Both the position numbers and the translations under genes were made by a program. A stretch of DNA of 63,510 bases, the filler included, from Dugesia japonica (lineage: Eukaryota), in the NCBI GenBank assembly GCA_001938525.1. It is 3 parts of 3 records of this genome, joined end to end, with 100 filler letters (N's around TTAATTAATTAA, not from the genome) between each part and the next. Parts side by side here need not be neighbours in the genome. Positions count along the whole stretch, not along the records: positions 1 to 26,511 come from MQRL01572624.1; 2 more parts are not named here. One strand, written 5' to 3'. Shown here one piece after another: positions 9,362 to 15,618 of the stretch. The notes below the pieces were generated by a model, which did not search any database, was not told the DNA's origin, and saw only the letters and a list, made by a program, of their open reading frames with translations. Position 1 is the stretch's first letter. Every line of letters begins with the position of its first letter.

Positions 9362-9363
<2 letters not shown>

Positions 9364-10010
9364 TTGGGGTGAATCACCCATTAAAAGGAAACAAGGCCGG
9401 AAAGCCTAAATCAACAGAAAAGAACGTCAGGACCACGATATTTACCAATAATAAAGATAAATTGCGAAACAACTATTAGAAAAGAATAAAACCAAATCAG
9501 AAATAGAGGAAGAACCGGGTAACATAAAACCCACTTACATCCATATTGGAAATTTAGAAGAATTATTAAATTATAATAAAAAACCAAGAAAATCAGCATG
9601 GAAAATAATCAATTAACAAAAAGAATATGAAATAATTTTAAAAATAATAAGAAGCAAAATTAGATAGAATTCTGTTTTACCCGAATAACTCCGTTCAGGA
9701 AAATCGGAGAGAATTCGGGTAAGAAAATACGGGAAGAAAATAATAAGACGCATCAAAATCGCCAGGAAGAAAAAACTTACCACCATCCAGAAGGTTGCTG
9801 CAGGGTCTCCAAGATCGGGCCAATAAGAGATCTAAAAATAAAAATAAAACAAAGACACAATTATCATGTGTCAGTCCAAAAATAGACGCCAATGGTAACT
9901 CCAAAATTCCGAAAAAATTGTAGAAAATTGGCACTGGAATCAATAAAATCAGAAAATGTTAATCTAAAAATATCTAACGAATCTGGAAGAAGTTGTGGTG
10001 TGCAGAAAAT

Positions 10011-10021
10011 CCTATAAAAGG
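10011..10021 (+). promoter_or_regulatory. TATA box of family A (CCTATAAAAG)
   Basis: Same position in A1 (5912), A2 (10013) and A5 (54615), degenerate in A3 (~19770). Preceded by several CCAAT/ATTGG motifs shared between copies. Confidence 0.7.
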
Positions 10022-11250
10022 ACCCCTGAATTCAACATAAAATAATAAGAAAAATTTTACTTTAACCGTTTAACAGTTACGCTATAATTGAGAAAATCCA
10101 GAACTAATTTTATACGAAAGATTGTATTGCACTCTTGGAAATCTGCTATCAATTAAAAGGTTAATATTCCCATAAATCATTTATTCGCACCGATTTGGAA
10201 ATCGATCTCAGACAACAATAATCAAGTAATTCGGTTTACTAACAACGTAAAATAACCGTTTATTGAAAAGTAAAGGATCAATTTATTGGCCATTTGGAAA
10301 TTGATCAAGAAAAAACTCACAATTGACCCAAAACCCGTTGCAGAAATTCATTAACTAATATCACGAAGTAAATTATAATTTTATTATAAATTGTATGATT
10401 GGAAAGTTTTAAATGTCTCTTATTTTCAATAAATTACCTGATATTAAGAATCTTAATTTGTTATTTCGTTCATTAAACATATTCATTTATGATGAATCGA
10501 GTACGGGTAATATAAAATAATAATAGAAAATTAAAAATAAATATTAGATCTATTTATTATTACAAAATGATAGTCCATGGCAGGTTTCATTTAATCTTCA
10601 TTAAATTAAATAAGAGATTGGGAAATGTGTATCATAAAAAATATAGTCAAGTCAGGATGGAATCAAATAATACCTGCCTGGTAAAAATATACACTGAAAG
10701 TAGAACCAGTTCATTTGCTTTTTATCATTTCCTGACTCAAAATGTTCATGGAAAAATTTATGATTAGAAAAAAAATAAAAGGTCATTAATATATCCAGTA
10801 GAGACGATCAACTGTCCTTGTTGATCCATAGTATTAAAATAATTCCATGAGTCCAATGTTAGAGAAATATAGGAGAATGCCTACTGCATCATCTGATTGA
10901 TTAAATATCACTCATAGTAGTAATTTTGACATCTCAACGCATCAAGGGGGGATTGGCTCTCTCATTCCCTTTATTTTCCCAGAAAAATCGATATTCACTT
11001 CACCTATTAGTTGCAGTAACACTTATCACAGTTGTCAGGTTGGCATTCCACATCATCAGCGGTGTGTATAGAGTAATCAGGACATAAGCATAATGTTGCT
11101 ACCCATTAATTCCATGCACACATTAGCGATAGTGTGCAGACATACATACATAATAAAAATCAATATAGTCATTCACTACCCGATAAAGTCGCTAAGCAAC
11201 GGCGACACGCAACAGTTTAAAGAACGAAAAATAAATTATCGTTTCTATCA

Positions 11251-11252
<2 letters not shown>

Positions 11253-11319
<67 letters not shown>

Positions 11320-11369
11320 NNNNNNNNNNNNNNNNNNNNNNNNNNNNNNNNNNNNNNNNNNNNNNNNNN

Positions 11370-12144: not shown

Positions 12145-12283
12145 CTTTAGCTGGGTGATTCCCATATCATAAAATAAATTGTATATAATCTTGCGCTGTT
12201 TACTCAATTGTTAATATAATTTGCTTTTCATACTTTAAAGTTGCTTTATCTGAATTTTGTTACTTATTCCGTTTTTCTTAGTT

Positions 12284-12655
12284 ATGGAATCAATCTGGGA
12301 ACGAGTAATCGATCGGCGAACCCGTCGAATAATCTTTCGACGTCATCACAACCCCCATAATCAAGACGCGGGCATCTTGGCCGACTGGTCCAACTTGCCT
12401 CCCGTGGAGTCTATTGTCTCTCGTATCCGCGATTTTGGAGAGAGTCAGCAGTACCAAACCTGGATGGGCCCTGACCGAACCCTTGCAACAGCTTTCCAAT
12501 ATCAGCCTCCCGCCCCCGCTCCAGCTCCCGCCGTTCAGGCATTTATATCTAATCCCCTCTGGGGAGTTAGGGAGCCTACCGGAGTAACTGATGTGGAAAA
12601 CACATCGACTCGCCAAAAGGCGTTGGGAGGCAGAGACTGCAGCGGCAGAAGCTAA
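12284..12655 (+). CDS. Family A ORF-A (MESIWER...), copy A2; C-terminus replaced by a deletion junction
   Basis: Acceptor TTTTTCTTAG ends at 12281, ATG at 12284. Protein aligns with A5 56771-57122 up to ...DVENT. Confidence 0.7.
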   Translation: MESIWERVIDRRTRRIIFRRHHNPHNQDAGILADWSNLPPVESIVSRIRDFGESQQYQTWMGPDRTLATAFQYQPPAPAPAPAVQAFISNPLWGVREPTGVTDVENTSTRQKALGGRDCSGRS

Positions 12656-12878
12656 GGTTAAGCGCTTCAAGCGAAAATGTCTAGCTTATAGATCGGAAGT
12701 GGACGCCACCCAGAATTAGGAGAGGGTGTGGAAAGCGCAGATCGAAACTCTTACGGATATCATCAGATCATACCAGGAGCGTGATAATCAACTGTTGGAA
12801 AATATATCGAAGTTGAGAGCAGCTACCCCTTTGGTCCCCCTCCTGATCAATAAAGGCACTCAGACTAATCGCTCATGA
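12606..12878 (+). pseudogene. Family A ORF-B (coiled coil, KGTQT tail), 5'-deleted, copy A2
   Basis: RLAKRRWEAETAAAEAKVKRFKRKCLAY...N*ERVWKAQIE...SYQERDNQL...NKGTQTNRS*. Premature TAG at 12717; AATAAA 12909-12914. Confidence 0.8.
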
Positions 12879-13000
12879 ATTATCATGTTTAAAATTTTGA
12901 TTAGCTTTAATAAATTACTTGTTGGCCTGTCCTTTACTTGATTTGCTCTAAATTGTCAATTTGGTGTTCACCGACTTAACTATAATATTTTTTGTTTTAG

Positions 13001-13383
13001 TGCCTCGTATCGTGTTTCCGACTAGTTTGCGAAGATTCCATCGTATCATGCGCCGTCTATTGTTGGAACGCCACTTAAAACGTAAAGCAGACCGAGCCCT
13101 TCTTAGACATCTTGCCCAGCGAGAAAAGCTCATAAAAAATTGGATTTAATAGTTCGAAAACAAAACGATTTGGCGCCCCAAACCAAGGCCCTGGAAGCAG
13201 AAAACAAGCTACTTCCGTTAAAAAAAATATACTTTTTGAAACAATATATCGCCGACCTTTCTCACCAAATTGGTAATCCAGCTTGGGTGCAGTGGAACGA
13301 CGACGATGACGTCGCGGCGTTCAATTTTTCTAATTACCAACCCAGATCAGTGGTTAGATCCTGGGGTATTGGACGGATTGTAA
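13001..13383 (+). pseudogene. Family A ORF-C (basic helical/coiled-coil protein), copy A2
   Basis: Starts TTTTAG|TG. PRIVFPTSLRRFHRIMRRLLLERHLKRKADRALL...FLKQYIADL...PDQWLDPGVLDGL* with two frameshifts. Homologs in A4 and A5. Confidence 0.82.
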
Positions 13384-15618
13384 ATGTTATAGTAATGAAA
13401 TGCTTCAAGTATCAAGGGCTTAAATTTTTGAATATATTGAGGGAAAACAGTGAACCCGAATAAAAGGCTTATCGGCGTGCACCTCCCATTAAGAGATAGG
13501 TCAACCACCATATGCTGAAGACCTGACCTAGGGGCGTCAGGGTAAATTCTTGGACGGGTCCCCTGAGAGCTGTTTTTCCCCAGCCTCCCTCTTTTTCACT
13601 CAACTCAGGTGGGACCCCAACAATAATAATGATAATAAGAATGATACTTATGTGTGGCTGGAACACCAAAATTACTCGAGATAATAAAGGAATAGAGAGT
13701 AGCAAAAATGGATAAAATGACAAAGAATAGACACGAAATTGACGAACTGGACCAGAAATATTATCAAGAGAATCGTTATAATTATTATTATTATTATGTA
13801 ATTATTATTATTATAAATGTTATGAGAATATTATAAAATAACGAAAATAAAAATTGGGCAGGAAAGACTCAAATTTTATGTTACAAAACTGAAAATAATA
13901 TCAGAAGAAAGGAAAAGAAGAACGTAATAATAAAAATAAACTANNNNNNNNNNNNNNNNNNNNNNNNNNNNNNNNNNNNNNNNNNNNNNNNNNNNNNNNN
14001 NNNNNNNNNNNNNNNNNNNNNNNNNNNNNTATTATAATTACAACTGGTCCAGTCATCAGTCCTTGTCTAGCTGATGAAAAATAACACGAAATAATCAGCA
14101 GATAAGCTGAATCATCCCCTGCTAGACAAGGACTTTCTCTTAGTAATCGGCAAAGGTCACACGAGGTGACTGAAAAATAAAATCCAGTGCAAAAAGTTGG
14201 TGTGCACAAATCAGTGATGACACAATGAGAAGAGACGACGGCACACCAACTGCACCAATCATCTAACCGGATTGAGTGAAAATTGCAGATGTTTGGCAGG
14301 CTAATAAAAAACTAATAAAAAGTCGAATAAAAGTGAATACAATTTTAAAAATGAACAGAAGTTTTATTTTAANNNNNNNNNNNNNNNNNNNNNNNNNNNN
14401 NNNNNNNNNNNNNNNNNNNNNNGCAGAAGTTTTATTTTGAAAGTTTTAAAGCGGACAACAACTGTTTAAAGGCGCAATACTTGTGGAGAAATCAGATCGA
14501 ACAATTTGGAAAAGGAAAAACACAAGCGAAGTAAAAATTATTTACATTTTTTATTGATAATAGTTATCATAATCGAGTGCCATTCCTAGAAATTGCCTCA
14601 ACATGAATGACCGAGCTCTTGGAAAATCTGGACGAAATAAGCGAAAGGTGATAAAGATGTGAGTGTAATAGATGCAAATATTAAATATGCAGATAATGAT
14701 AAGCTCGGAAGGAAAAGAAAGGTGGATTTGGTTATAATTTAGCAGAGATTATGCGAATGTTCAAAAGAGGAACAGATGGAAGAGCTCAGTTAGTCATGTG
14801 GAGTTGGATAACTATGACTTTACAGATTTTACAAATATGTTATGTTCGTTTCGTTATGGTTACTTTTATTTTGGTTTTCTTTTATTTAACTATAAATTTT
14901 TCGCAAAATAAATTATATCACTTAGAGAATTTGTTAATTATATTTTCTCGTTACAGTTAATTTTGTGTTGATTTTTATGAAACTTTAGTAACAATTTATA
15001 TTAATAAGCTATGTCTTTTCTACGATTGGAGGAACTTTCAGCAGTAACTTTTAGTTATAGTTGGGTATTTCTTTTCGTATTAAAGTTATTAATATCCATA
15101 ACAGTAAGTCGTCAGTTTGAATTCTACATGAATCAGATTGACTTGCTGTGGATTAAATTTTTGGCAATCTGGACAGTTAAGCTACATCTTTTCGTTGTAG
15201 TGACAATCTGTACTAACGCCGCTTTATTAACGTCCGTATGACGTATTAATTATTAGGACTTAGACATATTCAATTTAATTTGTAGTGGCTAATATTTTTA
15301 ATTCAATTTAATAAATAATTTTTGCAACGAAATATTATCGCTGCTCAGTGATTCAATATATTTTACGATGTTCATATAGGGAGAAAAGTCAAATTAGCCA
15401 TTTAGGGAAGTCTTAACAGAGCTTGAAGATGGCGGGAACGAGAAAAGATGCTTGCAAATAGTGACCATCTTCTCTGGTTCGCATCATGAAGCGGTGGAGA
15501 AGTAAGGATAGGCCACAGGCCGAAGAAACGGTTTAATAATTCAATTTTTGTATTTTTACTTATAAATCTTATGTAATGTTGTAATGAAAATTGTGATAAA
15601 ATTATTTTGCCAGAAATA

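Follow-up and report, generated by a model that had tools for sequence, protein, structure and literature searches.

Background

Giant Ty3/Gypsy retrotransposons, Burro and GYPSM1, have been described in planarians. Their internal regions reach 25 kb and their total length exceeds 30 kb, with long terminal repeats (LTRs) that total at least about 5 kb; they are credited with thousands of copies and with accessory open reading frames (ORFs), and decayed fragments are recorded in Dugesia japonica (PMC6431247). Given these sizes, multi-kb LTRs are already known, and the size of the repeat described here, family A, is not new in itself. Family A was found in a 63,510-nt stretch of D. japonica DNA (assembly GCA_001938525.1; three parts joined by filler), the whole of which is referred to below as the window. 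By self-comparison and profile search, it is present there in five copies (A0 to A4) that make up 21% of the bases. Burro and GYPSM1 resemble family A in their flatworm host, multi-kb LTRs and accessory ORFs, the comparison being one of descriptions only. The Burro polyprotein is 4,900-5,100 amino acids long. The extra domains of Burro, as far as the available text goes, sit in the polyprotein or in an upstream accessory ORF, and LTR genes are not mentioned there (PMC6431247), whereas the genes of family A lie inside the repeat.

With moderate confidence, we interpret family A as solo or orphaned LTRs of a giant Ty3/Gypsy-type element, from several lineages that diverged long ago; the LTR of this element would carry a cassette of spliced genes. 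Taken by itself, an LTR origin of the family is likely. To our knowledge, LTRs do not normally code for proteins, and in the known exceptions a single gene is placed upstream of the promoter. Small accessory proteins are coded in or from the LTR in mouse mammary tumour virus (sag), human immunodeficiency virus (nef) and human T-cell leukaemia virus (HBZ); of these, sag and nef are located in U3, ahead of the promoter, and depend on the other LTR. Unlike these two, the genes of family A are downstream of the promoter, and one LTR holds all of the signals. No description of genes inside such LTRs was met in the literature searched, some of which was available in part, and one may exist in Repbase or in further papers. 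What appears to be new, judging from sequence motifs, is the combination of a CCAAT/TATA promoter, a donor-like splice site before the first AATAAA, and an acceptor-like site and polyadenylation [poly(A)] signal for each ORF.

The foamy virus LTR also has a splice donor upstream of its poly(A) signal, and U1 small nuclear ribonucleoprotein suppresses that signal in the 5' LTR (PMC3694450). Family A shares this order of donor and poly(A) signal. In the available part of the same source no gene block past the promoter is described for the foamy virus LTR (PMC3694450), whereas family A has four ORFs there.

Copies and boundaries of family A

The five copies, which are mutually 60-70% alike over their alignable parts, are as follows.

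A0: 5240..7130, plus strand; has the 5' end, promoter block, donor, first poly(A) signal and middle, without the 3' half
A1: 9362..13622, plus strand; two-ended; inserted within (AAT)n sequence; interrupted by a 50-N gap (11320-11369)
A2: 19400..21750 (about), plus strand; spans the promoter block to ORF a; neither end left
A3: 25830..26495, minus strand; only ORF d and the 3' end; surrounded by scaffold gaps
A4: 53999..58421 (about), plus strand; near-complete; ORFs a and c open

A1 begins with TGTTGGGGT at 9362 and finishes with ACCCCAACA at 13622. Its perfect inverted repeat is 9 bp long with no extension (8 bp if the 3' end of A4 is used), and no longer inverted or direct terminal repeats were found when the termini of family A were compared. 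Both clear 5' ends (5240 and 9362) open with TGTTGGGGTGAA and all three 3' ends (13622, 58421 and 25830 on the minus strand) terminate at CCCCAACA; the boundaries of the family are therefore real. The 5' end of A4 is without TGTT and has TCAAAG and a G run (the purine word) directly upstream. The ends of family A read TGTTGGG...CCCAACA. The integrase-site consensus of animal Ty3/Gypsy (Metaviridae) and retroviral LTRs is TGTTRNR...YNYAACA (PMC3601003), and it is matched at 2/2 clear 5' ends and 3/3 3' ends.

The window is AT-rich (about 28% GC), with many small scaffold gaps and decayed transposons, and the 50-N scaffold gap of A1 falls inside a (TTA)n run. The layout of A1 is nevertheless no assembly artefact, as A4 shows the same order and size with one N. 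The features of A1 are listed below.

9362..9370, plus strand: 5' short inverted repeat; integrase-site-like, fits TGTTRNR
9362..10019, plus strand: U3-like block; A content 47%; its last 300 nt contain three CCAAT/ATTGG boxes; TATA box at 10013
10013, plus strand: TATA box, at +651
10336..10373, plus strand: GTTGCA motif and donor-like site; donor at 10368, last exon base A
10428..10433, plus strand: first poly(A) signal, AATAAA, +415 from the TATA box
10451..11950, no strand given: variable middle; unalignable between copies; (TTA)n-like repeats and decayed Cys-containing minus-strand stretches
11962..12144, plus strand: ORF a; 60-77 amino acids; N-terminal part basic, C-terminal part acidic; in-frame stop in A1 at 12055; AATAAA at 12173
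12284..12610, plus strand: ORF b; Arg-rich at the start and Pro-rich in the middle; A1 lacks its end and also the b-c spacer, which is about 320 nt in A4
12609..12878, plus strand: ORF c; basic, coiled-coil-like; stop in A1 at 12717; AATAAA at 12909
13001..13383, plus strand: ORF d; begins at an acceptor-like AG, then TG; basic region and one long helix; two frameshifts in A1
13391..13622, plus strand: terminal segment, conserved in three copies at 74-83% identity
13614..13622, plus strand: 3' short inverted repeat; closes the terminal segment of A1

Putative promoter, splice and poly(A) signals

All four copies that retain the promoter part of the unit carry an A-rich block in which 3-5 CCAAT-type boxes occur, where 0.85 would be expected per 300 nt. 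The boxes are followed by a TATA-like box (4/4 copies having this part), and an AATAAA lies 333-415 nt past it, also in 4/4 copies. The conserved CCAAT/TATA block is situated some 650 nt in from the 5' terminus. A preliminary description of the window had placed the TATA box about 650 nt into A1 and the AATAAA 415 nt later, between 9-bp inverted TG...CA termini; both motifs are confirmed (10013 and 10428), and the termini were found at 9362 and 13622, with ends that recur in other copies. A lone AATAAA is a weak signal (3.5 per kb in the window and 15 within A1), and what is conserved, as judged from motifs in the four copies, is the succession and spacing of promoter and poly(A) signal inside the repeat.

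Between these two signals is a donor-like site, which follows an A and lies 17-30 nt beyond a conserved GTTGCA in 4/4 copies and 34-60 nt before the first poly(A) signal. Its dinucleotide is GT in three copies and GC in A4, with a chance expectation of 4-6% per copy. An acceptor-like AG is found near the frame start (within about 10 nt) at 8/9 ORF starts, and it is AG-TG at all four surviving acceptors of ORFs c and d, in a phase that would complete a start codon with the A of the proposed leader. At the other end, 7/9 ORFs have an AATAAA no more than 60 nt from the stop (null 0.19 window-wide, 0.34 in AT-rich stretches); the misses are ORF a of A2 and ORF d of A1 (75 nt), and ORF b of A1, whose end is missing, was excluded. 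Since the copies are related, motif counts across them are not independent; when the four ORF positions are counted once, the poly(A) association is about 0.013 under the stricter null.

Genes in the repeat

The four sense ORFs, a to d, occupy the 3' 1.7 kb of family A (tblastx and frame tables). In 13 ungapped block comparisons between copies, the proportion of nonsynonymous differences (pN) was 0.15-0.31, and that of synonymous differences (pS) was above 0.8 in 12 blocks and 0.55 in the remaining one; the pattern vanishes in shifted frames. Between A1 and A4, fourfold-degenerate sites differ far more often than second codon positions in ORF b (15/18 vs 17/68, p 1e-5), ORF c (16/19 vs 14/88, p 2e-8) and ORF d (16/22 vs 22/100, p 1e-5). 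ORFs b, c and d clearly, and ORF a more weakly, have been kept by purifying selection between lineages, which bears out the preliminary description of the repeat as protein-coding. With saturated synonymous sites and low pN, the copies must go back to distinct lineages of considerable age, in each of which these proteins were retained. All five are now decayed by stops, frameshifts or truncations; in-frame stops are found at 12055, 12717, 21596, 56988 and 58098, along with several frameshifts.

All four proteins contain a strongly basic patch, with a net charge of +6 to +9 over 20 residues. ORF d is predicted from a four-row alignment to form a single helix over residues 10-93 (predicted local distance difference test [pLDDT] 88). 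Two of the ORFs, b and d, were queried against the large protein sets. For the ORF d alignment, 0/252 candidates held among 5.8 billion proteins of 24-186 amino acids, and there were 0 matches at E 0.001 among 1.84 billion representative proteins. For ORF b, 0/16 candidates held among proteins of 59-191 amino acids, and the ESM Atlas gave no match. ORF c matched only unnamed clusters in the ESM Atlas, a bZIP cluster at 0.88 being a weak lead. Pfam yielded just weak, sub-cut-off coiled-coil matches to the family A ORFs, PHROGs and NCBIfam nothing for ORFs a-d, and PDB sequences nothing for ORFs b and d. No reverse transcriptase, transposase or integrase family was found in the scanned pieces of the unit.

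In the variable middle of 1.5 kb, an antisense gene was sought in 15 frames and no credible Pfam family was found; nor was there similarity across copies, the DNA identity between them (0.39-0.50 at 10.4-11.3 kb) being at shuffle level (0.42-0.48). No tRNA or Rfam family was found in the window.

Proposed expression of the cassette

The signals described above suggest one leader spliced to alternative last exons. The U3 promoter would give a leader with one splice donor just before the first poly(A) signal, and this leader would splice to one of four acceptors, producing four short mRNAs, each with its own poly(A) signal. ORFs c and d may take their ATG from the splice junction, where the last A of the leader would meet the first TG of the exon. 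With the donor placed ahead of the poly(A) site, transcripts from the 5' LTR might in addition read through into gag-pol, in the manner of foamy viruses. The preliminary description took the gene block for the equivalent of a U5; it would count as either R or U5 according to the poly(A) site at which genomic RNA stops, and the last 230 nt, being short and conserved (74-83%), would also suit a classical U5. The products, small basic and partly coiled-coil proteins, may be nuclear or RNA-binding regulators of element expression or of host silencing. Selection would have operated as long as the lineages were multiplying in the form of complete elements, and LTR-LTR recombination would then have left single copies, which are now decaying.

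GLT and GLT2 of Schmidtea, probably LTRs by their Repbase naming, may have a comparable layout. Both are probes in a study of PIWI-repressed transposons, in which GLT2 RNA appears in neurons after PIWI loss (PMC8532177). By eye, the GLT2 probe, read on its opposite strand, has AT-rich sequence, then a pyrimidine tract with AG at its end and a TG in the phase of ORFs c and d, and some 79 codons free of stops in which K, R, E and Q abound; the GLT probe has a short open frame behind an AT-rich stretch (PMC8532177). Between these partial probe sequences and family A, no clear sequence likeness was seen by eye. Given the acceptor-TG-coiled-coil pattern of GLT2, the layout may be general among planarian giants and may already be in Repbase.

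If the model is correct, every young solo LTR would be a complete expression unit, and a giant retrotransposon could scatter accessory genes genome-wide without gag-pol. Such LTRs would be a concrete source of orphan spliced transcripts, which annotation of genes and repeats would classify wrongly. They would also provide testable candidates for element-encoded regulators in animals with Burro1, an element reported, second-hand, to help regeneration (PMC13465017).

Identity of family A

An LTR is the best reading of family A in view of its end motif, the one-sided promoter layout, the lack of long inverted repeats and the lack of a transposase in the pieces scanned. In its workings it would resemble an LTR of a complex retroelement. 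The preliminary description had gone further and read family A as solo LTRs; the LTR part of that claim is supported by the ends and the promoter layout, and the copies may be solo or orphaned, none of the five being paired around gag-pol in the window. Several other observations weigh against our interpretation. As had been reported earlier, no primer-binding site (PBS) follows the 3' ends (0/3; no TGG within 28 nt) and no polypurine tract (PPT) precedes the clear 5' ends (0/2; longest purine run 2-3 nt in the preceding 30 nt). Missing PBS, PPT and pairing are expected of solo LTRs, and equally of a unit that was never an LTR. A1, the only two-ended copy, lies in a microsatellite, and A4 is without matching flanks. 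The ATAA noted earlier is indeed present on both sides of A1, but the site is an AAT microsatellite in which lengths of 4 and 7 fit and 5 and 6 do not; as a period-3 repeat always fits one of 4, 5 and 6, these flanks do not prove a target-site duplication (TSD), the length of which would be 4 if there is any. The RNA fold of the terminal segment does not surpass that of shuffled sequences (z 0.89, 0.34 and -0.87), and its best stem is nearly invariant. The donor pattern and the purine word were picked after the sequence had been inspected, GC replaces GT in one donor, and the counts come from related copies. Taken alone, ORF a is not significant (6/10 fourfold vs 17/60 second-position differences, p 0.07), and the proposed protein function is deduced purely from charge and helix content.

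The TCAAAG and G run before A4 may be a PPT, in which case A4 would be a 3' LTR. The 10-mer TCAAAGGGGG occurs twice in the window (0.02 expected), each time at the 5' edge of a U3-like block: before A4, and about 650 nt before the TATA box of a CCAAT block at 46150-46945 (minus strand). The latter block is A-rich, with two CCAAT boxes and a TATA box ~650 nt from the purine run at its 5' edge, a geometry that equals that of the family A promoter block; no homology to family A was found by DNA profile. Adjoining A4 upstream, at 51500-53950, are tandem repeats of 21-62 nt, which, should A4 be a 3' LTR, might represent untranslated sequence at the 3' side of an internal region. The Gypsy pol remnants at 27100-30200 and 46950-49400 (plus strand) were rejected as partners: both are decayed and of ordinary size, no end of family A adjoins either of them, and one is opposite to A3.

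Other explanations differ in how much of this they account for. Family A could be an LTR whose ORFs have no common leader and are expressed from internal promoters, or as transcripts from the other LTR or the internal region, so that a solo copy expresses little. ORFs a and b do carry their own ATG, the 1.5-kb middle could conceal promoters and all copies are decayed; however, ORFs c and d begin at AG-TG, their conservation starts there, ahead of any shared in-frame ATG, and a donor-like site of matching phase is present in 4/4 copies, which makes this reading unlikely. The earlier suggestion that a solo LTR acts as an autonomous expression unit fits the anatomy of the repeat; with five of five copies decayed, it could hold only for young ones. 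That all five copies are single, that their own genes are under strong selection and that PBS and a clear PPT are lacking would also agree with a stand-alone, non-autonomous unit that never flanked gag-pol and was mobilised in trans by a Gypsy-type integrase at its 9-bp ends. Against it, no transposase-type subterminal repeats suggest a DNA route, and a single unit is unable to copy its own promoter block via RNA. Solo LTRs are moreover commonly more numerous than full elements, and a gap-rich assembly would break 30-kb elements. We consider this explanation improbable, and hold equally doubtful the picture that goes with it, of a 4.3-kb mobile cassette with one promoter, one leader, four alternatively spliced orphan genes (start codons made by splicing in two of them), 9-bp integrase sites at its limits and an integrase borrowed in trans, filling a fifth of the window.

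Two further alternatives place family A outside the LTRs of a giant element. It could be a complete LTR element of the non-autonomous, TRIM/LARD-like kind, or else a fragment of a Maverick/Polinton or of another endogenous DNA virus. Genes that are nested and spliced are reminiscent of DNA viruses, and an adenain-type protease remnant lies 300 nt upstream of A1; this stretch, at 8717-9055 (Pfam Peptidase_C5, E 3e-5), is probably a Maverick/Polinton piece. The remaining four copies have no protease neighbour, however, and the TG...CA ends with their 9-bp repeat differ from Maverick ends, which are long repeats. A TRIM or LARD is opposed by the lack of direct terminal repeats and by coding selection on the interior. 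The probability of either origin is very low. Lower still is that of a non-autonomous Ginger DNA transposon, the alternative raised in the preliminary description. Ginger1 and Ginger2 share with family A the TGT start and, possibly, a 4-bp TSD length, and differ in inverted repeat, target and transposase. Ginger termini follow TGTNR, inverted repeats measure 40-270 bp in Ginger1 and 50-180 bp in Ginger2, the TSD of Ginger1 is CCGG or CCGT/ACGG, and the target of Ginger2 is RTATAY (PMC2836005). The 9-bp repeat of family A falls short of both length ranges, its ATAA flanks do not match either Ginger1 TSD, its site (AATAAT, from one insertion) is not RTATAY, and the scanned unit holds no transposase remnant; the Ginger alternative is thus contradicted at repeat, target and TSD.

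Other features of the window

A second family with a similar layout lies at 13650-16900. It has, on the minus strand, an open frame 94 codons long that includes 11 Cys, then sense coiled-coil-like ORFs, two of them with AATAAA 58 and 15 nt after, and a GC-richer end near 16896 whose last letters are CA. No tblastx similarity to family A was found. At the point where A0 breaks off (7115-7255) there is a long, near-perfect hairpin with arms of about 65 nt (by eye). A fold-back element (59251-60307 and 51731-52013) has inverted arms of 215-300 nt around a short coiled-coil-like frame, with a related arm across A4.

The remnants at 27100-30200 and 46950-49400 (plus strand) are decayed, ordinary Gypsy gag-pol, the second being interrupted by a hAT-like piece. 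A hAT-type transposase remnant with a BED zinc finger is found at 3200-5005 (minus strand), and further hAT-like pieces lie near 22850-23700, 38750-39250 and 62000-62470.

Two host genes were recognized. A striatin gene with several introns spans 30700-42265; one of its exons has 1,224 relatives, and the named ones among the 120 matches listed are 53-63% identical. In a tree of 254 gap-free columns and 10 named references it groups with a trematode (bootstrap 95), a placement weakened by long branches and by that trematode being the single flatworm reference. The apparent start of a pyruvate dehydrogenase E1 beta gene (by eye) lies at 63300-63430.

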